A model generated the notes under the pieces. It worked only from the letters and a program-made list of their open reading frames with translations, did not search any database and was not told where the DNA came from. The translations under genes and the position numbers were made by a program. From positions 10,710-74,709 of the forward strand of contig JBDRJK010000011.1 of the NCBI GenBank assembly GCA_043814985.1: a stretch of DNA of 64,000 nucleotides, written 5' to 3'. How positions within the stretch are numbered: position 1 is the first letter of the stretch; every line of letters starts with the position of its first letter. Origin of the DNA: Candidatus Aenigmatarchaeota archaeon (GTDB taxonomy: Archaea > Aenigmatarchaeota > Aenigmatarchaeia > Aenigmatarchaeales > Aenigmatarchaeaceae). Shown in pieces: positions 10,319-54,286 of this stretch.

Positions 10319-10732
10319 TTATATTATTGTTCCTGTCCAATAAATCATCAATAATAGCACTAGTATCAGGAGATACTCGCCGAAGCCTCCTGTTTTTATG
10401 GGGCCGTTGAACTTGGGCTTCTTCACAGGCCAGAGAGGCATTATCCCCCTATGTGTCAGCGAGTCTCCGATTAAGTGGCTGAAGAACCCGATAGAAAGAA
10501 TTATTGCGGCAATCCTGTCCAACAGTCCTAATTGAAAACCTATGAAAAGGACTATCACCAAGAACCAGACATTGTGGAATACCTTCCTGTGGTATTTTCT
10601 GAACTTGAAATCAAAGTCAGGCAACAGAACTCCCACAAAGGCGAAGAGCGACATGTATATGGGGAAATCGAGGACAAACCCGAAAAGTATCAGGGTCAGA
10701 AAAGCGAATATTATGTGCGTCACTTTTTGCAT
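10319..10732 (-). CDS. membrane-bound metal-dependent hydrolase (DUF457/YdjM-like)
   Basis: 4 TM segments, His-rich 'FFSHLIGDSLTHRG'. Confidence 0.4.
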   Translation of the reverse strand: MQKVTHIIFAFLTLILFGFVLDFPIYMSLFAFVGVLLPDFDFKFRKYHRKVFHNVWFLVIVLFIGFQLGLLDRIAAIILSIGFFSHLIGDSLTHRGIMPLWPVKKPKFNGPIKTGGFGEYLLILVLLLMIYWTGTII

Positions 10733-25763: not shown

Positions 25764-26999
25764 ATGGATAATGGAATAGTTGATTTCTGGTCTTTACCCC
25801 ATGACAAAATTTATTTAAATTTAGAAAATGAATTAAAGGAAAAAATTTTCAATTCTTCAAAAGAATATGCTGGGAGCTGGAGCAAATTAGGAAAATGTCT
25901 TGGCCTTTCCCTAAACAAATATGGAAGCTGTAAAATTATAGAAAGTGCTAGATGTAAAAAATTTAGTTTATTTTTACTTGATAAAATTATAGATTATTTG
26001 AATTCTAATGGCGAGAAAATAGATAAGAAGAATATAGAAAAGAAAATAACAGTACTTTCCTCTAAAAGAGGAGGTTCAAACAAGTTAGCCAACAGTATTT
26101 TCAATCCAAAGATACCCTTTAATTTTAATACTGTTGACGGTGCTACTGTCCTTTCTTCCATTTTTTATGATGGTGGAATTAACAGCAACCTATTGCCTCA
26201 TTATAGTAATCCAGACAATGTAGAACTGAGGAAAAGTGTGTTCGATTCTTTCACAAATGTTTTTGGCACATTCAAATCTAAAAAAAGCAACCCCTTAGAA
26301 AATCCTCAGCTATACTTCCCAAAAATAGTCGGAGTAATTCTTGTTTATGGTTTAGGATTATCTTATGGAAGAAAAGTTGTAAATAATCCATCCATACCAG
26401 AATTCTTATTTGAATCCTCTGAAGAAATAAAATCATCATTTCTTCGACAAGCCTTTGATGATGAAGGCTCTGTCCACAAGACTAAAAGAAATATAAGTTT
26501 CAAATTGGCCTCTTCTTCTGAAAGACCTGCTAAACTTCTTACCGGTGTAAAATGTCTGTTAGAGAGTCTAAACATAGAGAGCAATGGTCCTCATTATGTT
26601 GATACATACAATACTAAGAACGGCATTACAGCTTCCAGATGGAGAATATCTGTAACACATCAAGATAATTTAAAAAAGTTTTATGAAAAAATTGGTTTTC
26701 ATTCATCCTATAAGAAAAATAGACTTAAGAATATTATTCATACATTAAAATACCCTCATTATTCTGTTAAAAATAGAAACAAAATTATTATAAAATCTTG
26801 CAGTGAACTTCAAAAAAGATACGGTTTTATAACTAGCAGAGAACTTGCAATACAAATCGACAGAAGTCGGGTCTTAGCTAAAAAGGTTATTCGAAAATTA
26901 GTAGATAGGAAAGTTCTCTTAGTTAAAGAATGCCGCCATGGAAATATGGGAGCTAAATATGTTTTAAGTGATAATTATGAATCTTTGTGTAAGATGTAA
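25764..26999 (+). CDS. LAGLIDADG-like double-motif endonuclease-like protein with C-terminal wHTH
   Basis: Motifs 'LSSIFYDGGIN' and 'SFLRQAFDDEGSV' (LAGLIDADG-like); C-terminal 'ITSRELAIQIDRSRVLAKKVIRKLVDRKVL'. Confidence 0.5.
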   Translation: MDNGIVDFWSLPHDKIYLNLENELKEKIFNSSKEYAGSWSKLGKCLGLSLNKYGSCKIIESARCKKFSLFLLDKIIDYLNSNGEKIDKKNIEKKITVLSSKRGGSNKLANSIFNPKIPFNFNTVDGATVLSSIFYDGGINSNLLPHYSNPDNVELRKSVFDSFTNVFGTFKSKKSNPLENPQLYFPKIVGVILVYGLGLSYGRKVVNNPSIPEFLFESSEEIKSSFLRQAFDDEGSVHKTKRNISFKLASSSERPAKLLTGVKCLLESLNIESNGPHYVDTYNTKNGITASRWRISVTHQDNLKKFYEKIGFHSSYKKNRLKNIIHTLKYPHYSVKNRNKIIIKSCSELQKRYGFITSRELAIQIDRSRVLAKKVIRKLVDRKVLLVKECRHGNMGAKYVLSDNYESLCKM

Positions 27000-28191
27000 A
27001 GGTACTAGGATTTTATGTGGAAAAAGTAGTTGTCCATTGTTGATAAAGTTCTATAGTTATATGAGAACTAAACCACTTATTGATTCGACTACTCTCAATG
27101 GTTCATCGCCACCAGCTTGCTTTGTAGGTTCTTATGGATATCCCAAGGTTTTCGTGGGGCCCTTGGTGCCGCCGAAACACGGTGACACCAGCTTCATGGA
27201 CACGCCTGAGATGTGGAGGGGCAAGACAATGTGGGACATAGTCGACTTCAGGTTCCAGCTGGTGAGGGGCAAGTTCGTGACTGATGTCAAGAACTTTGAG
27301 GGAAAGATAATCGAGCGGACTAGGGAGATTGCCCTGGCTCAGGAGTCTCCCAGTGCTGAGGTTGAGTTCAAGAACAAACCAAGAGGATTATCCTTTAACA
27401 GTGAGACACAGCCCTTTGGTCCGTCGGCAAATGTCATTGGCCTTAATATTGAAAACAAGGGCTACAACAAGAAAATAGAAAAAGCGTTCTACGACACTGA
27501 CCTGAAGGCTGTGCCTGCTGTTGTTGATCTTTACAAGAACGGCGTGCTGATTTCAAAAATACAGAAGGCTTTTTCTGTGGGTGCGTTTGGAATCGGAAAG
27601 AGCAGGAGATTCGTTCCAACGCGCTGGAGCATAACAGCTGTTGATGACATGATTTCAAAACATCTCATAGAGCAGGTAAAAACATTCCCGCTGATAAACG
27701 AGTATCTGGTTTACGAGCACGCTGCTTTGGACAACCGCTGGTTTGTTTTAATGATACCACACGAATGGAGTTACGAGCAGATGGAAGCGTGGTATCCCAA
27801 GACATTGTGGAACCCGTCTGATGCAATTGACATATCAACAGCATGGGAAGGTTTCAACGGACTAAAGGGCTATCCGGATACAGCTGGCTGCTACTTTTCC
27901 ACGAGGCTGGCTGCCACCGAGTACCTTGCCAATGAAAGGAGGCAGGCTGCTGTAATAGTATTCAGGGAAATCCATCCAGGTTACACTGTTCCTGTGGGTG
28001 TCTGGCACACCCGAGAGAGCATAAGGGATGCTGTCAAGAAAACTCCTGTTAGATTCAGCTCAATGAGTGGCGCCTTGGACTATCTGTCAAAGAAGATGAC
28101 CATACCTGTTAAGAGGTGGGTTGAAAAATCCAGTCTTCTTAGGAACCTGATGCGACAGAGAAAGCTGTCAGACTTCATCAAGCCTTTCTAA
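26968..28191 (+). CDS. NreA-like DNA repair protein (DUF650/DUF651)
   Basis: N-terminal 'CVRCKGTRILCGKSSCP' and 'PPACFVGSYGYP'; ~400 aa. Confidence 0.5.
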   Translation: MIIMNLCVRCKGTRILCGKSSCPLLIKFYSYMRTKPLIDSTTLNGSSPPACFVGSYGYPKVFVGPLVPPKHGDTSFMDTPEMWRGKTMWDIVDFRFQLVRGKFVTDVKNFEGKIIERTREIALAQESPSAEVEFKNKPRGLSFNSETQPFGPSANVIGLNIENKGYNKKIEKAFYDTDLKAVPAVVDLYKNGVLISKIQKAFSVGAFGIGKSRRFVPTRWSITAVDDMISKHLIEQVKTFPLINEYLVYEHAALDNRWFVLMIPHEWSYEQMEAWYPKTLWNPSDAIDISTAWEGFNGLKGYPDTAGCYFSTRLAATEYLANERRQAAVIVFREIHPGYTVPVGVWHTRESIRDAVKKTPVRFSSMSGALDYLSKKMTIPVKRWVEKSSLLRNLMRQRKLSDFIKPF

Positions 28192-30329: not shown

Positions 30330-31406
30330 ATGAGTTTAGTTAGTAAAAGATTGAAAGGTAGTTCCGGCGCTGTCAAGGGCGCAATTGTTCTACTCACACT
30401 CGCGTTCATAGTTGCTAGCGTGAGCTATGTAATACCTGCTTTGGCTGTTCATAGTTCATCTGCTGTAATCAGTCCAGAATGGGTTATACCAAGTTCTGAA
30501 TACACATTCACCATAAATGTAACACATACTTATGTTGGCGGTGACGCCATAAGGGAAGTTAGAATATACAATAATACGCCAGGACATGAGGGTTTTGTTT
30601 GCGGTGTTGCTCCTTCTGGATGGTGGCTTATTGACCAAACAGGAACTTCTAATTACTGCCAATACCAAACAAACACCAATTGGCTTTATTATGATGATTT
30701 TGAAGACTTTACTTTCAAGGCAACAATGATTCAGGCCGAATGTACTTTGGTCACATGTTCTCATCTTTTTAGAACATCAACAATAGATATCAAGGAACCA
30801 CAAGGAGAGTTGTTCTATAATCTACCTGAAGTAAAGGTTGATTGTTTTGATCCTATAACAACAAAAACATATGGGGATCCTAAAAAACTTTTAGATGAAC
30901 ATTGGATTAATTCTTCAACGCCAATAACACTCACAGCAACAGATAATAAGGACTGTGATTCTGGTGTTGATTACATAAAGTATAGGTACTGTCTTGATTC
31001 CGGCTGTTATGAAGGCGAACCATGTGACTGTAGGGATGATCCTTGGACTACAGTAGATGACTATACAGATACATTCACAATTCCAGAAGATTCTGAACAC
31101 TGTATAGAATTTTATGCTGTAGACAATGTAGGTAATGATGAAAAGATAAAATCGCAGTGTGTTTTTGTTGACAATCAACCGCCTTATTCTGTTAAGGAAG
31201 TTGGTGATCCAAAGCTCCCACAGGATATAGAGGAAGAAGGTAGCGGAGATGCAGGATGGTCGACAGAAGGAGAATATAATTCACCGACCCATTCAGCAAA
31301 GCTTTATGTTGCAAACGGAGGAAATGACTGGGCTGGAGTTGATATAGAAGTTGATAAAGCTTTAAAAGATATTACTGAATTATCATTTTGGGAGAAAGTA
31401 GCATGA
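30330..31406 (+). CDS. N-terminal segment (signal peptide + first Ig-like Cys-rich repeat) of giant surface protein; interrupted
   Basis: Signal peptide 'AIVLLTLAFIVASVSYVIPALA'; repeat 'ITLTATDNKDCDSGVDYIKYRY...CIEFYAVDNVGNDE...QCVFVDNQPP'; ends at TGA 31404-31406 with downstream ORF open in +1 frame. Confidence 0.6.
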   Translation: MSLVSKRLKGSSGAVKGAIVLLTLAFIVASVSYVIPALAVHSSSAVISPEWVIPSSEYTFTINVTHTYVGGDAIREVRIYNNTPGHEGFVCGVAPSGWWLIDQTGTSNYCQYQTNTNWLYYDDFEDFTFKATMIQAECTLVTCSHLFRTSTIDIKEPQGELFYNLPEVKVDCFDPITTKTYGDPKKLLDEHWINSSTPITLTATDNKDCDSGVDYIKYRYCLDSGCYEGEPCDCRDDPWTTVDDYTDTFTIPEDSEHCIEFYAVDNVGNDEKIKSQCVFVDNQPPYSVKEVGDPKLPQDIEEEGSGDAGWSTEGEYNSPTHSAKLYVANGGNDWAGVDIEVDKALKDITELSFWEKVA

Positions 31407-31422
31407 TGACACATTCGTAGAA

Positions 31423-34400
31423 ATGGATGGGGCATTGGGACCGCTAGGCAGTACATTTGACTGGACAAAGATAGATGCTCTTGCTACACCAAGATGGTGG
31501 ACACCTAATGCTGGTGGAGATGGTTTATCTGGAGCTGGATATGGTTATACTGTACCACCTGCTCTCTATGATACATTCACCAATCTTTTGACTAAAATTG
31601 ATGACGGAACTTGGGATACGAATATTCCTGACACCAATGTGAAAGTAAAACTAATAAAACTAGTTATAGGTGGCTCAGGAAGTTGGATGAATGAAACAGC
31701 ATTTGTAGATGATTTAAGTTTGAATAATGTCATCATAATGTCTGAACCACCAGAATATTGGGTAACTCAAAATACATCAATAACATTGGATTGTGTAGAT
31801 CCAGAGCCTCATCCAGTTGATCAAGAAACTTTGTGCTATAGAGTATCTTTACACGATGATGGATTGGAGTATATAACAAACAATCCAGGTAAATATTGTG
31901 ACACCTTCGGAGGAACAAAAGACGAAGATTGGTGTTGTGTAAATGTTGGTGTCAACCCACTACCAATTCATTTCTTAGAAGATTCACACCATAACCTGGA
32001 ATACTTCTGTGAAGACTATCTTGGCAATACAGAAAGTCCATTTAATATACAGTGGTATTATGTTGATACTGTACCGCCAGCAACGACCAAAACATATGAG
32101 CCTGGTGTGTATGTAGACGGAAATACAGAGTATGCAGACACTGTTCATAGAGTAATATTGGAATCAGATGACGTAGGCGATATTTGTGTAATTGGTTTGG
32201 ATGAAATATATTATAGGGTCAGAGTTTTGAAGAACCCGAACAACTGGCATTACTGTTATGACGGTTGTGACGGATGGAACGGAATACCAGACCATTTGGA
32301 AGCTTTCCAAGCAACCCCATGGTTAACCTATGATGTGCCATTCGGTTTGCCAGAGGAATCTTGTAACGTTATTGAATATTATGCTGTAGACAGTTTAGGA
32401 AACGAAGAAACAGTTAAAAGACAGTGTGTATTCTATGATGCAACAGACCCAGTGACTGAAAAGAGTTATGGAGAGCCATTCTTCAGTCCTGATGGAAATG
32501 TTACAAAGTGGATAAACACAAGTACTGAAATAACCCTTGCTGCAACAGACCCCGAACCACATCCTTCTGGTGTTAAGGAAACAAATTATAGAGTAACATT
32601 ACTAGGAAGCAATGAGGCATGTGAAAGTAATAGTAGATGCCAAGAAATAAAAATAGATGGGGGTGGTTGGACACCATATACGGTCCCATTTACAATTGGA
32701 GAAGAATCATGCCATTTGATTGAATATTATAGCGTTGATAATGTCGATAAAGATGAGGACATAAATAGGCAGTGTGTATTTGTTGAAGACACAGCACCAA
32801 CTATTTTGGAAAAGACAGTCGGTCAGCCAAGTTTTGAGAGAGAAGGAAAGACTTACATATCAGGCCAGAGTCCAATAACCATGAGATGTGAGGATCGGGG
32901 AGACCACCCAGTAGATTATGTCTCAATGTGGTACAGATACAGGGTGAGTGATGACTGTGCAACGTGGGGACCTTGGATTACAGACGGTTGCCAGGATCAA
33001 GTTGTGAACGGATGGTGTGATCCAACAGGACAAGGTGTAGTTGAAAAGACAATATACTTCCCACAAGACTCCTGCCATGAATTAGAATACTATTGTGTGG
33101 ACGCACTAGGCAACGAGGCACAGCATGAATTCGAGATTGATGTTGTTGACAATCAGGCACCTGAAATAGAAAAAATAATAGTCGGTCCGCAATGGGGAGA
33201 CTGTCCACCTGGAGAAGGTGATACATGCTTTGTTGACAGTGCAACCGAGATAATTGTTAATGCAAGCGATCCAGAGCCACATCCAGCAGGTGAAGTGCTT
33301 TGTGATTGGAATGTTGTTGTAAAGAATGTTGCAGGAGCAGAGATTGACAGTTATGGAGATAGTGGAATTACTCCACCATTCCCAATAACCTTCCCAGAAG
33401 AATCGTTCCACGAATTAACAATAGATTGTTATGATAGACTTGGAAATAATGCATACGATTTTGAAGTTTTCGAAGCTGATCATACATCACCTTTAATTTT
33501 GAAGAGTTACAATCCAGAAGAAATATATCGCGAAGGCAATGGATGGTGGGCAGAGTGGATAGACTCAGATACAGAAATAAACATTGAAGTAACTGACGAT
33601 GGAGATCATAAATCAGGAATTAAAGAAGTCAAGTATCGTTATACAAGACAAGACAATGATGAATATTGTAACTACACTGTTGAAGACCAATATGAGTGTG
33701 AAGATGCAGTCGGAACTGGTGTTTGGACATATGTTGACCCAGCAGATTTTGATGACTTTACTTTCCAAATACCACAAGACTCATGTCACTTAATTGAAAT
33801 AGTAGCAACAGACAATGTAGATAAAGAAAATTATCATAAACAGTGTGTATACGTTGACAATCAAGGACCAGACCCATTGAAAGAAGTATATGATCCAAAA
33901 GCAATGTGGACTCCAGGTATAGACGGAGATCAACCAAGTTACTTCTATCCTGAAGAAACTGCACATTGTTGGGATGGAACAGAGTTTTCAATAGACTGCT
34001 GGAAAGTTACAATGATGACAAGAATATCTCTTGACTGCGAAGACAAGCAGCCACACCCAGTTGATCATGAAGGCGTTTGCTTCAAAGTTGGTTTGGATGG
34101 AGAAGACGCAACTGAAGAATACTGTAACAGCAATGAAGAAGTATCCTGTGTCTTAGATTGCACTGATAACGAAAATGACATCAAGGGAGAAATGATTGAT
34201 GGTTGGTGTTGTGTCGATGGTACAATAGAAAACTTTTATTTCCAAGAAGAAACAGAGCACAACCTAAAGTATTATTGTACTGATGCTTTAGGAAATGTAG
34301 GACCAGAAGACGAAGAGAAGTTCAAGGTTGAAGGAACAACATTTGAAATACCATTGTACAAGAAGTGGAACTTGATATCAGTGCCATTTGTATTATTGGA

Positions 34401-35055
34401 CGACGACCCAGAAGTGGTATTCAATAATGTAAAAGAAAACATAATATCAGTCTGGGCATATGACGGAGACAAGGTATTATGTGGTCAAGAGTGGTGCGTA
34501 TGGACACCAGGAGATGGTCCAGATAATCTAAGAATAATACCAGGTTGGGGTTATTGGGTATTGACAAACCTGACAGAAGAACCAGTAGAGGTATTGATTG
34601 GAGGAAGCTTGTTCAGTCCAAGAACAACGCCACCAAGCAGGGATTTGGTTTCAGGATGGAACCTGATTGGTTACTATGGAACAAGTTGGGAACTGTATGA
34701 ATGTGGAGACTTTGAGCCAACATGCAGACCAGGAATCAATTGGTTCCCAGGCAAGTACATATACGGAGACCAAGTATACTGCGCCTTGAACTCGCTGGTA
34801 GACACACAAGAAGGATATCCAAGATGGAGTTCATTGTGGAGTTACATAAGCTGTGGAAGTCACACTGCATATTGGTTAGGATTGAACACATGTGCAGACC
34901 CAGATAGTCCACTACAATCAAACCTTGACAGAATGTATGCAGGTCGTGGATACTGGTTAGAGTTGGATGTAGCAGACATGTATGCACCAGCAACAACTTG
35001 TCTATGGAACAGTGACTATGAATGCAGATGGTCAGGCGGCGGAATAATACCTTAG
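31423..35055 (+). CDS. giant Cys-rich surface protein, >=7 Ig-like repeat modules plus Trp-rich C-terminal domain (continuation of 30330 ORF)
   Basis: 1210 aa; modules 'TLDCVDPEPHP...YRV...EESCHxIEYYxVDxxGNxE...QCVFVD'; no own signal peptide. Confidence 0.7.
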   Translation: MDGALGPLGSTFDWTKIDALATPRWWTPNAGGDGLSGAGYGYTVPPALYDTFTNLLTKIDDGTWDTNIPDTNVKVKLIKLVIGGSGSWMNETAFVDDLSLNNVIIMSEPPEYWVTQNTSITLDCVDPEPHPVDQETLCYRVSLHDDGLEYITNNPGKYCDTFGGTKDEDWCCVNVGVNPLPIHFLEDSHHNLEYFCEDYLGNTESPFNIQWYYVDTVPPATTKTYEPGVYVDGNTEYADTVHRVILESDDVGDICVIGLDEIYYRVRVLKNPNNWHYCYDGCDGWNGIPDHLEAFQATPWLTYDVPFGLPEESCNVIEYYAVDSLGNEETVKRQCVFYDATDPVTEKSYGEPFFSPDGNVTKWINTSTEITLAATDPEPHPSGVKETNYRVTLLGSNEACESNSRCQEIKIDGGGWTPYTVPFTIGEESCHLIEYYSVDNVDKDEDINRQCVFVEDTAPTILEKTVGQPSFEREGKTYISGQSPITMRCEDRGDHPVDYVSMWYRYRVSDDCATWGPWITDGCQDQVVNGWCDPTGQGVVEKTIYFPQDSCHELEYYCVDALGNEAQHEFEIDVVDNQAPEIEKIIVGPQWGDCPPGEGDTCFVDSATEIIVNASDPEPHPAGEVLCDWNVVVKNVAGAEIDSYGDSGITPPFPITFPEESFHELTIDCYDRLGNNAYDFEVFEADHTSPLILKSYNPEEIYREGNGWWAEWIDSDTEINIEVTDDGDHKSGIKEVKYRYTRQDNDEYCNYTVEDQYECEDAVGTGVWTYVDPADFDDFTFQIPQDSCHLIEIVATDNVDKENYHKQCVYVDNQGPDPLKEVYDPKAMWTPGIDGDQPSYFYPEETAHCWDGTEFSIDCWKVTMMTRISLDCEDKQPHPVDHEGVCFKVGLDGEDATEEYCNSNEEVSCVLDCTDNENDIKGEMIDGWCCVDGTIENFYFQEETEHNLKYYCTDALGNVGPEDEEKFKVEGTTFEIPLYKKWNLISVPFVLLDDDPEVVFNNVKENIISVWAYDGDKVLCGQEWCVWTPGDGPDNLRIIPGWGYWVLTNLTEEPVEVLIGGSLFSPRTTPPSRDLVSGWNLIGYYGTSWELYECGDFEPTCRPGINWFPGKYIYGDQVYCALNSLVDTQEGYPRWSSLWSYISCGSHTAYWLGLNTCADPDSPLQSNLDRMYAGRGYWLELDVADMYAPATTCLWNSDYECRWSGGGIIP

Positions 35056-35226: not shown

Positions 35227-35982
35227 ATGAACCAAAAATTGATGTTGACTACATTTGTTGGTATTATGTTACTTTCTAATTTAGTTTTGGCAGTGCCAAT
35301 CGCCCATCAATTTTATGGCAATGTCAGTATTAACGGAAGTCCAGCTCCGGATGGAACAACTGTTGTTGCTAAAATAGACGGAACAGAGGTTGGAAGCACA
35401 ACAACTAAAGGTGGAAAGTATGGTTATGACCCAGTATTCATAATATCACTTTCTTCTATACAATCTGGAAGAACAATTAATTTTTTTGTTAATGGAAATC
35501 AAGCAAATGAAAACTTTCAATCTTGTTATGATTTTGCTTGTAGCACAGAATTAGATTTAACAGCTACAGGTGAAACAACTTCTGGCACTACAACAACTAC
35601 TACAGGCGGCGGAGCTCCTAGCGGTGGCGGTTCCACACCATCAACAGAAACCACAACTGAAACAACCGAAACTACAGAAGAGGGTTGCCAGGAGAGATGG
35701 ACTTGTTCAGACTGGGGAGCATGTGAGAACGGCATCCAGACAAGAGTTTGTGAAGACATAAACAACTGCGGAACAAACAGTGGAGAACCGTTCTCATCTC
35801 AGCCATGTGCAACTGTTGGAGAGGAAGCAGAAGCATCAGTTGGACCATCAGGATTCTTCCTACTAACGCCGACCAACCTGTTGATAGGGTCAGTTGTTTT
35901 AATAATAGTCGCGGCAATCACAATCTTTCTATTAAGAAGAAAATCCGAAAACATCGTACTGCCGCCCAAAGCGCTTCTTTAA
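35227..35982 (+). CDS. secreted Thr-rich protein with TSP1-like Cys motif and C-terminal TM anchor
   Basis: Signal peptide; 'TTTTTTGGG...TETTETTE' linker; 'CQERWTCSDWGACENGIQTRVCEDINNCG'; C-terminal TM + 'RRK'. Confidence 0.55.
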   Translation: MNQKLMLTTFVGIMLLSNLVLAVPIAHQFYGNVSINGSPAPDGTTVVAKIDGTEVGSTTTKGGKYGYDPVFIISLSSIQSGRTINFFVNGNQANENFQSCYDFACSTELDLTATGETTSGTTTTTTGGGAPSGGGSTPSTETTTETTETTEEGCQERWTCSDWGACENGIQTRVCEDINNCGTNSGEPFSSQPCATVGEEAEASVGPSGFFLLTPTNLLIGSVVLIIVAAITIFLLRRKSENIVLPPKALL

Positions 35983-36802: not shown

Positions 36803-37845
36803 ATAATGTATCAAGCATCATAATACCGGTCTATAATGAAGAGAAGATTATCATGAATATGCTCAAAAAGAATGTCAAGGTTTTTGAAAACAGCAATATG
36901 GACATCAAGGAGATAATCGTGGTTGATGACGGTTCCATTGACAACTCAAAGAAGGAGATTAAGAGATTCATAAGGGATTACAAAGGCAATATTGACATCA
37001 GGCTGATTCCCCACACAACAAACATGGGAAAGGCCCAGGCTCTTAACACGGGGATAAGGCACGCCAATGGGGAATACGTTCTCTTGTCTGATTCGGACTC
37101 TTTCATGGATGTTGAGGCGCCTGAAAAGATTATTCTGAAGATGAGAGAGACAGGGGCTTCATGTATTGTAGGACATGTTGTGCCTGCTCAGAACACCCTT
37201 CTGACGCGCCTGCAGAGGATGGAGTATGACTTTGACCAAAAGGTAATAAGAAGGGTGCAGTCCCTGTACACCAACGTGATATCAATTCCAGGACCGCTGT
37301 ATTTCACCAAAAAGAGCATTGTTGAAAAGATAAAATTCGACAAGTACAGCATTGTCGAGGATTTCAAGATCGGGATTGAGATGAACAAGAAGAGGCAAAG
37401 GATAGTCCCGACTGATGCCGTGGTATACTCTTATGCCCCTACCAACTTTTCGCAGCTCAGGAAGCAGAGGCTCAGATGGTTCGGGGGAGTATTGAAGGAG
37501 ACCCTGAGAAACAAGGATGTCTGGAAGACCAACCCGTTCTATTTTTCCAACGTGCTGATGTGCTTCACGTCGTTCTTCTTCACCATATCAACCGTAACTT
37601 TGTTTGGCCTGATGCTTTACTTCGCTACAAACCTGCCCAACCTGCTGGTAAACTTCGTGCTGTTCTTCCTTTTCTTCTGCTTTACAATTTCAGCTGTTTA
37701 TGCCCTGTCTATAAGAAGGTTCGAGTTGGACACTTTCCTGGCATTCCCGCTCTATCTGACCTTCTTGTTCATAGTCAGGACAGAGGTTGTCATAAAAGTT
37801 GTTTTGAACAGGAAGTTCGTTTGGGGGACAAGGGAATACCGTTAA
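36787..37845 (+). CDS. family-2 glycosyltransferase, processive synthase type (QxxRW)
   Basis: 'VVDDGSID', 'LLSDSDSF' DxD, 'QRLRWFGG'; 4 C-terminal TM helices. Confidence 0.8.
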   Translation: MVVKMNNVSSIIIPVYNEEKIIMNMLKKNVKVFENSNMDIKEIIVVDDGSIDNSKKEIKRFIRDYKGNIDIRLIPHTTNMGKAQALNTGIRHANGEYVLLSDSDSFMDVEAPEKIILKMRETGASCIVGHVVPAQNTLLTRLQRMEYDFDQKVIRRVQSLYTNVISIPGPLYFTKKSIVEKIKFDKYSIVEDFKIGIEMNKKRQRIVPTDAVVYSYAPTNFSQLRKQRLRWFGGVLKETLRNKDVWKTNPFYFSNVLMCFTSFFFTISTVTLFGLMLYFATNLPNLLVNFVLFFLFFCFTISAVYALSIRRFELDTFLAFPLYLTFLFIVRTEVVIKVVLNRKFVWGTREYR

Positions 37846-38165
37846 TCAGTAGTGTTTCCCTTTAGGAGAATTTCAATTATCTGCGGCAAAGAATTGTTTA
37901 TTGTATTGACAATATTCTCCAGTATCCTGTTGAACAAATAGCCCAATGCACTGTTCGCCCTTTCTGCCAGAACATTAGTGATGTTAGTACCTTCAAACAA
38001 ATCCAAGATATCAGAGACCCTGGTCTGGTTGAACACGGTTATGTTGGGAAGCCCCCTGATGGTGATGTTGGGGATCCTTATGGTTATGTTGGGAATAGTT
38101 ATACCTTGGGCCATCACAACAGGAGAAAGTAGCAGGAACACCGCAAAAACCAGAAAGGCTTTCAT
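37842..38165 (-). CDS. small secreted protein with 'IPNITIR' repeats and many N-x-T sequons
   Basis: Signal peptide 'MKAFLVFAVFLLLSPVVMAQG'. Confidence 0.45.
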   Translation of the reverse strand: MKAFLVFAVFLLLSPVVMAQGITIPNITIRIPNITIRGLPNITVFNQTRVSDILDLFEGTNITNVLAERANSALGYLFNRILENIVNTINNSLPQIIEILLKGNTTD

Positions 38166-39772: not shown

Positions 39773-40804
39773 ATGAAGAAAACATTAACAGGATTCGTGA
39801 TTTTATCAATTCTATTAGTATTATCAGTAAACATCGCTATTGCTGAAGAAGAGAGCGTATCATTCGATGTAACTGAGAATGAGACAAACAGCAGCTATAC
39901 TGTAAACATAGACATACAAATCTCAGGAAACGATACTCATGTAAGAGATGACCTATACGGAACAGCAACTGGTTCAGGACCAAGGGATGTGATTTTGGGA
40001 GGTGCTGAATTTGATCATAATAGCGAAGTTAGAGAGATTTGCTATCAGCCAAGCTTACAAGCATATTTTAACCAAATAGGAGACATACCACCATCAGGTT
40101 TTGCAGCATATCTAAAATCTTTGGGATATGATGATGAATCTCATATAAGTTTTATATGGAGTTTGTGCCAGCAAGAGTACATCAACCAACAGCAAGACGC
40201 ATGGTCAACAGACTCTGGCGTACAACCAACTGATATGGTCCGTTACATTACAGGTTCCATAGACTGGTTGTTGGGAAGAGAAGCAAATCCTTTAGACGGA
40301 TACAAAAAGATAGGAGTTGCCTTGGACAGTTACTTTGCTTCTGATAGGGATGTTTGGCTTCTGGTAAACAGAATAAACATTCTGGAGGTAAGAATAGAAG
40401 CATTGGAAAAGACAATAGAAAGAATCGCTTCTGAGGAATACTGTGAAATGAAGGTTGAAGCTCTAATGAAATATAATTTGAGCTATGTCAAGTGCGGAGA
40501 GAACTCGACCATCTATGCAAGAGTCGATCCAAACGAATTTGGTTTCAACATAATCGGTTACACTAACGAGGATCAATGCGCTGTAGAATGGGGATGTACA
40601 GATTGGAGTGAATGCGAGAACGGAATCCAGACTAGAAGATGTTCTGATGCAAACATGTGCGGAAGATATGAAAATAAACCAGAAGAAACACAGGTATGTG
40701 CAGTGGTTCAAGAAGATATAGAAGAGCCAGATTTAACTTATGTTTCAGTCAAGGAAGTCCTTCCAACAATACAGAGCTTGCTTCTGCCTTTGTTCGTGGT
40801 CTGA
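39773..40804 (+). CDS. secreted protein with TSP1-like Cys motif
   Basis: Signal peptide; 'EWGCTDWSECENGIQTRRCSDANMCG' paralogous to motif in 35227 gene. Confidence 0.5.
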   Translation: MKKTLTGFVILSILLVLSVNIAIAEEESVSFDVTENETNSSYTVNIDIQISGNDTHVRDDLYGTATGSGPRDVILGGAEFDHNSEVREICYQPSLQAYFNQIGDIPPSGFAAYLKSLGYDDESHISFIWSLCQQEYINQQQDAWSTDSGVQPTDMVRYITGSIDWLLGREANPLDGYKKIGVALDSYFASDRDVWLLVNRINILEVRIEALEKTIERIASEEYCEMKVEALMKYNLSYVKCGENSTIYARVDPNEFGFNIIGYTNEDQCAVEWGCTDWSECENGIQTRRCSDANMCGRYENKPEETQVCAVVQEDIEEPDLTYVSVKEVLPTIQSLLLPLFVV

Positions 40805-41011: not shown

Positions 41012-43129
41012 ATGAAGAAAGTTATTTTATTTTCTATAATAGCAATAGTCTTGCTGAGCTCAATAACATTGGCAATGACAGACGTGAGAGCGTCAAATAT
41101 TAAATCTAATAGAGTTATAGCGCGCACAAATTCTCTAGCAGACAGGATGCTATTCAGAATGCAGGGGTGCAAAATAATTCACGAGCTGGAAGATGCGACT
41201 GCAATGAATTGCCCAGAGGCAATTGCTTCGAGATTCGAGCAAGATGAAGTTCTTTATATAATGGATTTACAAGCAGACCAACAGATAGGGGCGGACAAGG
41301 TTTGGGCTTTGGGTTATGACGGTTCTGGGGTAACAGTCGCGGTTTTGGATACAGGAGTTGATTATGACCATCAGGAGCTGTCAGACAGCATAGTTGGAGG
41401 TATAAGCTTTGTCTCATACACATCTAGCTATTCTGATGACCATGGACATGGAACACATGTCTCAGGAATAATAACTGCCAATGGTGTTGTAGCCTCTGCA
41501 GAAGGCGTTGCGCCAGGAGCAAAGGTATGGATGGCAAAAGTTTGCGATTCTGGTGGTTCTTGCTATACGAGCGATATAGCAGCTGCGATTGATTATGTTG
41601 TTGATGGGCCTGATGGTGCACCAAATACAGGAGACGAACCAGCAAAGATAATGAGCATAAGCTTGGGCGGCGGAGGAACTTCTAGGTCAAATTGTGATAA
41701 TGATTACTTGGCTTCAAAAGTTAACTGGGCAGTAAGCAAGGGTGTGACTGTTGTAGCAGCAGCAGGCAATACCGGAAGAGTAGTTAGCAGCCCTGGTTGT
41801 GCAAGCGGGGCAATAGCAGTTGGGGCAGTTGACAAAGGCGATGTAAGACCATCTTGGTCTGGCTCAGGCAGTGCGTTAGATATAGTTGCACCAGGGGTAA
41901 GCATTTATTCTAGTTTGCCGGGCGGCGCTTATGCGTCTTGGAGCGGTACTTCAATGGCAACACCGCATGTTTCAGCAACAGTGGCTTTGATGAGGCAGGT
42001 GAACCCGAGCTTAACAGACAGTCAAATCAAAAGCATACTTTATTCAACAGCCAAAGATTTAGGAAGTGCAGGATGGGATAGATATTATGGCTGGGGAAGA
42101 GTCGACGCCTACAATGCATACTTGGCTGTTAAACCAATAGAACCTGAATGCACAATTGATTCAGAATGTGATGACGGATTATACTGTAATGGAGCTGAGA
42201 CATGTATTTCAGGAGTTTGCCAATCAGGAGCATCTGTTGGCTGTTCCTATTTAGATAATCAATGCAATGTTGGAATTTGTGATGAAGCTTCAGATAGTTG
42301 TGTGGCACAACCAAGACCCGACGGAACTTCTTGTAATGACGGTTTGTTCTGTAATGTAGGAGAAACCTGTCAGGCTGGAGCATGCGGCGGAGGAGAGGCT
42401 TACACCTGTGGTGTTAATGACACTTGTACTATTGCTTCTTGTGATGAATCATCAGATAGCTGTTCAAGTTCACCAGTAGCAGACGGAACAACATGTGACG
42501 ATAATTTGTTTTGCACAGTGTATGACGCTTGTACAAGCGGTATTTGCGGTGGAGAACAAATAAACTGTAATGACGGTGTAGGATGCACTGTTGATTCTTG
42601 CAACGAGGGAACAGGCTCTTGCGATAACACGCCGGATAATTCAATATGTGATGATGAAATATATTGTAATGGTGTGGAAACATGCCATGCAACATCAGAT
42701 TGCCAGGCGGGAATCCCAGTAAATTGTAATGATAATAATTTTTGTACAGCAGATAGTTGCGTTGAAGGTTTAAAAACATGTGAAAACGTCTGGGAGGCAT
42801 GTGGTTCGACGGATGGATGCTGCGGACCCGATTGCAATAGTATAAATGATCCAGACTGTGCAACAGCTGTTAAATGCTGGAGCGGAGATTACCAATATCT
42901 CTACAGGAATTCGAATCAGATGAAAAAATTCTGCAAGTGTGCAATGGGTATTTATGGATACAATAGTTACAGTTATAGTTGGGGAAGGGAAACAGTTTAT
43001 TATTATTTAGACTCGGGAAACAATGAAGAGTGGGATACAAATTCAAGGTCATCATATCTTCCAGTAAACAAAGTAGTTTGTGCAGACGGTGAACCATACT
43101 CGACTGGCGAAGATTACTACTACGGTTAA
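41012..43129 (+). CDS. secreted subtilisin-like serine protease (S8) with C-terminal Cys-rich repeats
   Basis: Signal peptide; Asp 'VAVLDTGVD', His 'HGHGTHVSG', Ser 'GTSMATPHVS'; >=6 repeats 'CxDGLYCNGAETC'. Confidence 0.85.
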   Translation: MKKVILFSIIAIVLLSSITLAMTDVRASNIKSNRVIARTNSLADRMLFRMQGCKIIHELEDATAMNCPEAIASRFEQDEVLYIMDLQADQQIGADKVWALGYDGSGVTVAVLDTGVDYDHQELSDSIVGGISFVSYTSSYSDDHGHGTHVSGIITANGVVASAEGVAPGAKVWMAKVCDSGGSCYTSDIAAAIDYVVDGPDGAPNTGDEPAKIMSISLGGGGTSRSNCDNDYLASKVNWAVSKGVTVVAAAGNTGRVVSSPGCASGAIAVGAVDKGDVRPSWSGSGSALDIVAPGVSIYSSLPGGAYASWSGTSMATPHVSATVALMRQVNPSLTDSQIKSILYSTAKDLGSAGWDRYYGWGRVDAYNAYLAVKPIEPECTIDSECDDGLYCNGAETCISGVCQSGASVGCSYLDNQCNVGICDEASDSCVAQPRPDGTSCNDGLFCNVGETCQAGACGGGEAYTCGVNDTCTIASCDESSDSCSSSPVADGTTCDDNLFCTVYDACTSGICGGEQINCNDGVGCTVDSCNEGTGSCDNTPDNSICDDEIYCNGVETCHATSDCQAGIPVNCNDNNFCTADSCVEGLKTCENVWEACGSTDGCCGPDCNSINDPDCATAVKCWSGDYQYLYRNSNQMKKFCKCAMGIYGYNSYSYSWGRETVYYYLDSGNNEEWDTNSRSSYLPVNKVVCADGEPYSTGEDYYYG

Positions 43130-53341: not shown

Positions 53342-54286
53342 TCATTCTAGAAATTCCACAAAGTCAACTTTCCCATCATTGTTCATATCAAGACCATCGA
53401 CAACCCTGGCATAGTGTTTCTTGTTGTAAGAATTACCTGAACATAATTCGTCAAACTTCAACAAAAAAGCCAATAAAGCAGCCTTTGTTCCTTTGTATCT
53501 CCTTCCACTGACAACCAGTATGCTCTTCTTCTTGTCATAGGGATTCTTTATCTTGACAATTATGCCGTAGCTTTCGTCAGAATAAGACTTCTTTGATATC
53601 TCTGAATAGAAGCTGTCAAAGTAATTGTCCTTGTACTTTACTTTTCCGAACTTTATTGGCAGCTTGGAATTGATCTTGGCTGTTATGGAATTGACAGAAG
53701 GGCCTCCAATGAGAATCAGATTGTTCTTCAAATCCTCTTTGCTTAATTCTGTATCAAATCTGACACAATCACCAGGAACGTAATTCAAGAAAGTCCCGAA
53801 AAACAAGGCCAAGTTGGTTGCATAGACACCATCATGACCTCTTTCCTTTGTGGGGCCATGTGGCTCAGGGCTTCCTATTACAATAGTGGCATTGAACTTG
53901 CCGTTTTGGATGAACGGTTCTAGGAACTTTTCATGCTCCTGCTTCATTTCAAAGAACTTTGATGACGGCTGCAAGGGCTTTAGGACCAAGACAAGAGCAG
54001 GGTCTGTTATTGAATAATACTTGGTTATTGCCCCCTGCCTCCTCTCCTCTCTAATTACTTTGATTAGATTGGACTTTTCCAGATTCCTTATGTGGTAGTA
54101 TATCTTCTGTTCGTGCATTTTCAATTTCTTACCCATTTCCTTGGGATAGTAGGGCTTCTCAGCTAACAAACCTAATATTTTCCATGCAAGAGGAGAAAGC
54201 GCAACTTTCAATTCATCGGGTTTCAGTATCCTTGCAGGCAAACTTGTTGGTTTCCCGTTTTTCTCCTCAACTATCCACGTCATCAT
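53342..54286 (-). CDS. wHTH (ArsR-like) protein with C-terminal EF-hand-like Ca-binding loop
   Basis: 'LAWKILGLLAEKPYYPKEMGKKL...IYYHIRNLEKSNLI'; C-terminal 'DMNNDGKVDFVEFLE'. Confidence 0.4.
   Translation of the reverse strand: MMTWIVEEKNGKPTSLPARILKPDELKVALSPLAWKILGLLAEKPYYPKEMGKKLKMHEQKIYYHIRNLEKSNLIKVIREERRQGAITKYYSITDPALVLVLKPLQPSSKFFEMKQEHEKFLEPFIQNGKFNATIVIGSPEPHGPTKERGHDGVYATNLALFFGTFLNYVPGDCVRFDTELSKEDLKNNLILIGGPSVNSITAKINSKLPIKFGKVKYKDNYFDSFYSEISKKSYSDESYGIIVKIKNPYDKKKSILVVSGRRYKGTKAALLAFLLKFDELCSGNSYNKKHYARVVDGLDMNNDGKVDFVEFLE

Follow-up and report, generated by a model that had tools for sequence, protein, structure and literature searches.

Domain organisation of the two host proteins

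The 64,000-nucleotide stretch analysed here (positions 10,710 to 74,709 of the forward strand of contig JBDRJK010000011.1 from a Candidatus Aenigmatarchaeota archaeon, hereafter the window) contained two forward-strand genes, at positions 35227..35982 and 39773..40804, whose products share a 41-residue module with six cysteines. The best overall explanation of this module, to which a probability of about 0.6 was assigned, is that of a disulfide-stapled stalk or spacer of surface proteins in DPANN archaea and in the Candidate Phyla Radiation (CPR), similar to thrombospondin type 1 repeats (TSRs).

The first host protein (protein 1; 35227..35982, + strand, 251 aa) was delimited from its open reading frame (ORF), its translation and its orthologues. 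Translation and hydrophobic windows showed a signal-peptide-like N-terminus (aa 1-22, MNQKLMLTTFVGIMLLSNLVLA; 35227..35292, + strand), which was followed by a small head domain ('HQFYG...', aa 27-112; 35305..35562, + strand), a Thr/Gly/Glu-rich low-complexity linker read from the translation (aa 113-153; 35563..35685, + strand), the module, and a C-terminal transmembrane (TM) anchor with a basic tail (RRK...), the anchor being located by hydropathy windows and translation (aa 217-236; 35875..35934, + strand). The module ended at aa 194 and the TM segment started at aa 217. Approximately 61 orthologues of about 250 aa were found, and the named ones were labelled as Aenigmarchaeota or Aenigmatarchaeota metagenome-assembled genomes (MAGs). 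A PGF-CTERM or other sorting signal in protein 1 was considered and rejected, as there was no NCBIfam match.

The head domain of protein 1 was 53% identical in P0064, a 313-aa protein that does not carry the module; head and module therefore combine freely. The stretch that P0068-70 have in common with protein 1 (the head) was combined with CARDB, and further genome loci encode module-bearing proteins that have the 'HQFYG...' head N-terminally. This head (35305-35562; P0063-P0070), which matched no family model, is a mobile unit in its own right.

The second host protein (protein 2; 39773..40804, + strand, 343 aa) was read from its translation as a signal peptide, an unrelated N-terminal region of about 240 aa, the module and a short hydrophobic C-terminus. 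It produced no Pfam or NCBIfam match, and no contig record encoding it was found. A spacing of 23 aa separated the module from the C-terminal stretch, a 12-residue hydrophobic window (aa 332-343, ending in SLLLPLFVV; 40766..40801, + strand) which is possibly a weak or truncated anchor.

The two module copies in the window

Comparison of the two whole proteins by BLASTP produced an alignment over one stretch only (27 of 54 residues identical, ungapped, E=1e-16), in agreement with the initial annotation, made from the sequence alone, which had described the two hosts as otherwise different secreted proteins. The core of the module consisted of 41 aa with the framework C-x5-C-x5-C-x8-C-x5-C-x12-C, and the spacing was identical in both copies. 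Copy 1 (CQERWTCSDWGACENGIQTRVCEDINNCGTNSGEPFSSQPC) was located at 35686..35808 (+ strand, aa 154-194 of protein 1) and copy 2 (CAVEWGCTDWSECENGIQTRRCSDANMCGRYENKPEETQVC) at 40577..40699 (+ strand, aa 269-309 of protein 2), both being supported by translation, regular expression, BLASTP and profile score, and copy 1 also by a predicted structure. The two peptide strings quoted in the initial annotation were both present, and its coordinates spanned both copies. The cysteine skeleton it had drawn was common to both as well, but ended at the fifth Cys, while the module extends 13 residues more to a sixth conserved Cys.

The 41-aa cores of the two copies were identical at 21 of 41 positions, and both copies matched every invariant position of C-x3-W-x-C-x2-W-x2-C-x4-Q-x-R-x-C-x-D-x-N-x-C-G-x5-P-x5-C (41 aa) in hosts with signal-like N-termini. 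At the DNA level the identity was about 60% (94 of 156 columns), so the copies represent an old shared domain and not an assembly artefact or a recent duplication, the latter having been rejected on this value. A six-frame hidden Markov model (HMM) scan of the window showed exactly two copies, with 56.6 bits for copy 1, 52.8 bits for copy 2 and a runner-up at 7.7 bits; the two scores are not fully independent because the 80-sequence profile was made of 78 copies from unrelated proteins plus both window copies. A regular-expression scan of the window had the same outcome.

Size, conservation and distribution of the family

The module with the same spacing was found in 61 of the 62 closest relatives of protein 1, the 62nd (P0035) being only 196 aa long with a W-C-W-C motif. 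Among these relatives the residues C1, W5, C7, W10, C13, R20, C22, C28, P35 and C41 were invariant. A profile search had been proposed as a check in the initial annotation; beyond the two copies in the window, an exhaustive HMMER search of 1.84 billion cluster representatives with a 28-sequence profile showed 7,648 representatives at E<=1e-3, 2,208 at E<=1e-10 and 221 at E<=1e-30. Tandem arrays were frequent among them, and as many as about 18 stretches matched in one protein. The best 150 proteins contained 723 instances, of which 398 had the exact C5C5C8C5C12C spacing. The family consensus was C-t-[EP]-n-W-x-C-x-x-W-S-x-C-x-N-G-x-Q-T-R-T-C-T-D-x-N-n-C-G-T-x-x-n-K-P-x-x-x-Q-s-C, with conservation of W5 (100%), D24 (97%), W10 (96%), R20 (92%), Q18 (85%), N26 (83%) and Q39 (76%). 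A word-indexed homologue search with short module alignments produced no match; a query of only 41-50 aa will seldom have three 5-mers in common with a target.

A degenerate DNA pattern for W5 to C28, scanned over one genome per GTDB species with labels as deposited, matched at least 119 loci. The matches listed included at least 75 from DPANN, at least 15 from unclassified archaea, at least 10 from CPR/Patescibacteria and at least 1 from an unclassified bacterium. The DPANN matches listed were distributed into Woesearchaeota (at least 32), Nanoarchaeota (at least 15), Pacearchaeota (at least 12), Aenigmatarchaeota (at least 9), Nanohaloarchaea (at least 4), Iainarchaeum (at least 2) and Micrarchaeota (at least 1). 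At least 18 of the matches listed were on TPA-labelled contigs, deposited as 'uncultured Methanosarcinales' (at least 12) or 'uncultured Gammaproteobacteria' (at least 6). Among the 78 multi-copy hosts, 9 also had PF07752, an S-layer domain of Methanosarcina type, which suggests that some carriers are really Methanosarcinales-like, and the gammaproteobacterial label looks doubtful for the module contigs. The module-bearing TPA-labelled MAG contigs among the matches listed were L005, L008, L025, L062, L079 and L104, together with 12 'Methanosarcinales' loci. Two high-scoring family proteins were named Kerfeldbacteria and Gracilibacteria.

Nearest-neighbour identity did not separate archaeal from bacterial copies; the module sequences are too short and too constrained, and therefore nothing on transfer between archaea and bacteria can be inferred from them. 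With a single 40-base probe per locus, no fetched genome locus matched the window. The presence of the module in so many proteins, mostly of DPANN with some of CPR, answers the reservation in the initial annotation that the motif might be absent elsewhere. The module is almost certainly a real mobile extracellular domain family. The earlier suggestion of a small extracellular module shuffled between proteins was borne out, and its reach extends far beyond this gene cluster to many different partner domains.

Architecture and location of the host proteins

The partner domains of the module were all of extracellular or envelope types, namely S-layer (PF07752), Kre9_KNH, PG_binding_1, CARDB, bacterial TSP3, Big (including Big_7), fn3, Kelch, FG-GAP and NHL propellers. 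A signal-like hydrophobic N-terminus was present in 128 of the 150 best representatives and in 68 of the 78 complete hosts from genome loci. A TM-like segment followed the last module in 51 of the 78 complete hosts (mostly DPANN loci) at a median gap of 29 aa, and in 38 of those 51 it was at most 60 aa away. Protein 1 fits this common plan exactly, with signal, head, Thr/Gly-rich linker, module, TM segment and basic tail. In arrays, 67% of adjacent copies began 42-48 aa apart, and the copies are therefore arranged head to tail with linkers of 1-7 residues. The module thus lies outside the cell, usually beside a membrane anchor or in tandem arrays. Since it marks secreted or anchored proteins, it provides a handle for finding surface proteins that episymbionts may use for host contact.

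Cysteine pattern and probable disulfide bonds

Among 657 full-length instances from the best 150 representatives, 591 contained all six Cys and 62 were without exactly Cys2 and Cys4, while any other pattern occurred at most twice. The joint loss of Cys2 and Cys4 indicates a Cys2-Cys4 disulfide and disfavours a metal site. The six Cys most likely form three disulfides. The four-cysteine sub-variant (62 of 657; P0072-P0221), with spacing 11/14/12, offers a natural experiment on how the Cys pair.

Oxygen is absent from the habitats of many DPANN and CPR organisms, and extracellular disulfides there need dedicated machinery. An abundant three-disulfide extracellular domain in mostly anaerobic, genome-reduced cells raises a testable question of oxidative protein folding. 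For CPR, at least, oxidative folding outside the cell is plausible, as their genomes show an enrichment in MdbA-like oxidoreductases alongside VKOR (bioRxiv 10.1101/335083).

Predicted fold and structural neighbours

AlphaFold2 (AF2) produced a model of predicted local distance difference test (pLDDT) score 78.3 from 28 mostly orthologous sequences and one of 94.8 from 80 diverse copies, in which 39 of 41 residues were at 90 or above. The model showed short strands at residues 5-7, 17-19/22-24 and 38-40. The module is predicted to fold into a short rod of three strands that disulfides staple together, and TSRs are the nearest known structures to the model in shape.

A Foldseek search of the pLDDT-94.8 model against 350,542 PDB chains showed as its top four matches C8alpha (8b0f_E and 3ojy_A, 30-32% identity), a chain of 7nyc and TSR6 of MIC2, with query-normalised TM-scores (TMq) of 0.46-0.62. 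Complement components carry TSRs; the 7nyc match is a chain of a soluble membrane attack complex entry. The Toxoplasma gondii MIC2 TSR6 (8j64_B) is a 49-residue chain consisting of the TSR only, and it matched with a TMq of 0.58 and a target-normalised TM-score (TMt) of 0.50. The first model (pLDDT 78) gave as its top five 8b0f_E (C8alpha), 7nyc_C, two pleiotrophin entries and midkine, with TRAP at rank 40. Against BFVD, the best match was a phage protein annotated 'Thrombospondin type-1 (TSP1) repeat' (probability 0.92, TMq 0.68). For the predicted models, TSR or TSR-like domains were thus nearest in three Foldseek searches over two libraries. The initial annotation had named the lack of structural similarity to the TSR fold as a sign of chance resemblance; both models retrieved TSR or TSR-like domains as best PDB neighbours. 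The module quite likely has a TSR-like fold, going by these models.

Pleiotrophin and midkine contain TSR-like beta-sheet domains (8voi, 2n6f, 2luu) that, like the module, are short, three-stranded and disulfide-rich, and they were in the top five of the first model. Unlike the module, they are heparin-binding vertebrate cytokines (18-19% identity) with no Trp ladder, and they were absent from the matches of the higher-confidence model. The bacterial TSP3 repeat (PF18884), CARDB, Big and fn3 resemble the module as extracellular repeats in the same giant surface proteins, but TSP3 repeats are Ca-binding Asp-rich loops without a Cys framework, CARDB, Big and fn3 are Ig-like beta-sandwiches of about 90-100 aa, and none of the four aligns with the module.

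Sequence comparison with thrombospondin type 1 repeats

The reference set was made of 10 PDB-verified TSRs (TSP-1 TSR1-3, properdin, UNC5B and the C-terminal TSR of C8alpha). In hhalign, the 80-module profile had a probability of 9% against TSP-1 and properdin alone and of 49.5% (P=1.7e-4, score 20.8) against all 10 TSRs, with C8alpha and UNC5B added; the reversed control scored 10.5. The alignment ran end to end at low stringency, and its core placed 'SDWGACE----NGIQTR--VCED' opposite 's-Ws-Cs-tC--G-q-R-R-C', pairing 'W(S/G)xC--NGxQTR--xC' of the module with 'WSxC(sxtC)xGxQxRxRxC' of the TSR. The C8alpha TSR is like the module in being without the 'SxTC' insert and in having a Cys between its Trp residues. 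A search of PDB sequences with module profiles retrieved no TSR, and the match of the module with the C8alpha TSR in BLASTP had E=0.057. Because of this value, and because a TSR HMM scored real modules about as high as shuffled ones, the sequence evidence for TSR homology is marginal; it is compatible with a very distant relationship and is no proof of it. Membership in Pfam TSP_1 was rejected, as no model matched in 80 variants.

Like the TSR (PF00090, especially C8alpha, 3ojy_A residues 495-554), the module is a small extracellular unit with about six Cys, Trp residues on the first strand and G-x-Q-x-R...C on the second, and it is used singly or head to tail in surface or secreted proteins. 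Unlike the TSR, which has about 50-60 aa and occurs in animals or apicomplexans, it has 41 aa and is prokaryotic (DPANN/CPR), and it carries a conserved C-x-D-x-N-x-C-G-T...K-P motif of its own that is absent from TSRs. The canonical TSR disulfides are 1-5, 2-6 and 3-4 (group 1), as Tan and co-workers reportedly described in 2002 (cited in PMC10471735); the module differs from this in its C2-C4 bond, indicated by the joint losses, and in its framework, which is C5C5C8C5C12C against C-x3-C-x(8-10)-C... in the TSR.

In a TSR, the stacked 'layer' arises from the tryptophans of a WxxW(xxW) ladder that alternate with the arginines of RxR(xR) (PMC10471735). This strict ladder was absent from the module consensus, in which W5 and W10 are parted by x-C-x-x (W-x-C-x-x-W against WxxWxxW) and a single conserved Arg, R20, stands in Q18-x-R20-x-C22 in place of RxR(xR). 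The W/R pattern of the module could be a shortened ladder with about one layer less, in which the two Trp and the Arg would stack. The TSR glycosylation motifs (C-mannosylation at WxxW; O-fucose at CxxS/TCxxG) were also absent from the consensus; they are not expected in archaea because the enzymes are eukaryotic (PMC3417536).

The likeness to TSP1 repeats noted in the initial annotation is justified as a resemblance by the fold neighbours, but membership in TSP1 was not borne out by the Pfam models, the marginal profile score or the Foldseek E-values. The module is TSR-like by resemblance, and filing it as a TSP1 repeat is unwarranted. In kind, it is a shortened TSR-like module in lineages where a TSR is unexpected.

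Proposed role and alternative explanations

The module may be described as a compact, independently folding extracellular mini-domain of 41 residues with six Cys, two invariant Trp and one invariant Arg, and its role would be that of a rigid, protease-resistant, disulfide-stabilised stalk or spacer. A single copy would sit between a variable ectodomain and the membrane anchor, as in protein 1 and probably in protein 2, while head-to-tail arrays would form a rod keeping adhesive or enzymatic heads off the cell surface. In addition, the module may itself act in adhesion, in the manner of eukaryotic TSRs. From its position, the tandem geometry and the structural nature of its invariant residues, the odds that the module is mainly a spacer are slightly better than even.

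Several results weigh against a TSR-like spacer. In hmmscan, TSP_1-type Pfam models matched neither the host proteins (E<=1) nor 3 isolated modules (E<=10) nor 80 modules (E<=10). None of 300 column shuffles in hhalign reached 20.8, but the best of them, at 20.03, came near the real score. The TSR HMM had a maximum of 10.6 bits on real and 11.2 bits on shuffled modules, with 33 real against 13 shuffled instances at 5 bits or more, and the Foldseek E-values were all 0.26-2.4 (>0.1), which is not significant. The conserved polar residues Q18, D24, N26 and Q39 could mean a binding or metal site and not a pure spacer, and the spacer function is one that we infer from position and architecture. Anchoring of protein 2 is uncertain because its hydrophobic end has 12 residues only, and no oxidative-folding machinery was identified within the 64-kb window.

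One alternative concerns ancestry and not function, namely that the resemblance to TSRs is convergent and the family an independent prokaryotic invention. In a fold search, TSRs may come up as neighbours of any peptide of 40 residues that has three strands, three disulfides, Trp and Arg. The hmmscan results with 80 variants, the PDB profile search, the TSR HMM and the Foldseek E-values all fit this explanation, as do the different Cys framework with its probable C2-C4 bond and the presence of just two Trp and one invariant Arg. Other results speak against convergence, which is somewhat less likely than not: TSRs came first in three independent searches of two libraries, the real hhalign score was above 300 of 300 shuffles, and the end-to-end alignment was with a genuine TSR, that of C8alpha, with which the module has two features in common (the 'SxTC' insert is missing, and a Cys stands between the Trp residues). 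Common ancestry of the module and eukaryotic TSRs is possible and likewise somewhat less likely than not. The TSP1 domain has been assigned to the animal lineage, from which apicomplexans would have gained it through lateral transfer (PMC3417536). A bolder proposal, and an unlikely one, is that the module is an ancient prokaryotic branch of the TSR superfamily, a minimal TSR shorter by one Trp/Arg layer, which expanded massively among the surface proteins of episymbiotic DPANN and CPR and there would serve cell-to-cell attachment. If this were true, the TSP1 domain would have prokaryotic relatives or even a prokaryotic origin, and a TSR-like fold due to common ancestry would bear on the source of a signature adhesion domain of animals and apicomplexans.

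A second alternative, the main one as regards function, is that the module is mainly ligand-binding or adhesive, gripping glycans or surface proteins of the episymbiont's host cell, with its stalk placement secondary. DPANN and CPR lineages are known as episymbionts, and the module is concentrated in them. The nearest structural neighbours include adhesive TSRs (MIC2, and TRAP at rank 40), the partners CARDB, Big, fn3 and FG-GAP are of adhesion type, and the four polar positions named above, conserved at 76-97%, are surface candidates for contact. However, the top-conserved positions are structural (Cys, Trp, Gly, Pro), the juxtamembrane site, at a median of 29 aa from the anchor, is ill-suited to contacting a partner cell, and the array repeats are near-consensus and not diversified. 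To our knowledge no ligand of the module is known. An adhesin as the main function is considered less probable than the stalk or spacer.

The third alternative is that the six Cys bind metal (Zn or an Fe-S type cluster) instead of forming disulfides, perhaps favoured in anoxic habitats. Six invariant Cys within 41 residues and the anaerobic life of many host organisms speak for it. There are no CxxC or CxxH knuckles in the 5/5/8/5/12 spacing, the domain persists in the 62 instances that have lost C2 and C4 together, as fits a dispensable disulfide, the hosts carry signal peptides along with partner domains of extracellular type, and AF2 showed confident beta-structure with TSR-like neighbours. 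A metal-binding cluster was rejected on the paired Cys2/Cys4 loss, the missing knuckles and the extracellular context, and is very improbable. Lastly, a resemblance of two short Cys-rich stretches through chance or low complexity, which has nothing more than the shortness of the match in its favour, was ruled out by the BLASTP value of E=1e-16, the 52.8-56.6 bits against the profile (which includes both copies) and the recurrence of the module in thousands of proteins, and its probability is negligible.

Coverage by family libraries and literature

The module alone produced no Pfam-A match at E<=10 with 3 and then with 80 variants, and in the 78 multi-copy hosts the module region was covered by no Pfam family, the matches being to partner domains only. 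NCBIfam release 20 had no match on the module. A full-text literature search turned up neither an account of this module nor one of TSR-like domains in DPANN or CPR. It is thus a very large, apparently unnamed domain family and not a new system. Thousands of hypothetical DPANN and CPR surface proteins carry the module, for which Pfam-A (2025 copy) and NCBIfam (release 20) both lack a model. With a family model, a recurrent element of the least understood cell envelopes could be annotated.

Other features of the window

The window is an ordinary archaeal chromosome segment encoding FttA, ProRS, Mre11/Rad50, MetRS, MCM, GatD/GatE and Nre. Upstream of protein 1, two ORFs at 30330-31406 (+ strand, 358 aa, signal/TM-like N-terminus) and 31423-35055 (+ strand, 1210 aa, no such N-terminus at the called start) were 17 nt apart in different frames. 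They contained a common Cys-containing repeat, 'C..EYYAVD..GN.E....QCVF.D...P', which matched the NCBIfam OmpL47-type beta-barrel domain NF047446 (9.6e-29). Probably the two ORFs either derive from a single giant surface-protein gene that a frame change has divided, or are paralogues in tandem.

The ORF at 41012-43129 (+ strand) encoded an S8 subtilase (PF00082, 1.3e-57) whose C-terminal region of about 250 aa consisted of another Cys-rich repeat, 'DG..C.DG.FCNG.E.C..G.C', unrelated to the module. A small secreted ORF of 107 aa at 37842-38165 (- strand), located between a glycosyltransferase family 2 (GT2) gene and a 141-aa ORF without Pfam match, contained a short tandem repeat, 'IPNITIR' / 'LPNITVF', with candidate N-glycosylation sequons. 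At 25764-26999 (+ strand), a 411-aa ORF with LAGLIDADG_3 (PF14528, 1.9e-8) overlapped the start of the Nre gene (26968-28191) and may be a free-standing homing endonuclease or an intein remnant. The 313-aa ORF at 53342-54286 (- strand) showed an unusual pairing of an HTH_20 DNA-binding domain (7.3e-6) with an S_layer_C outer domain (1.9e-11).

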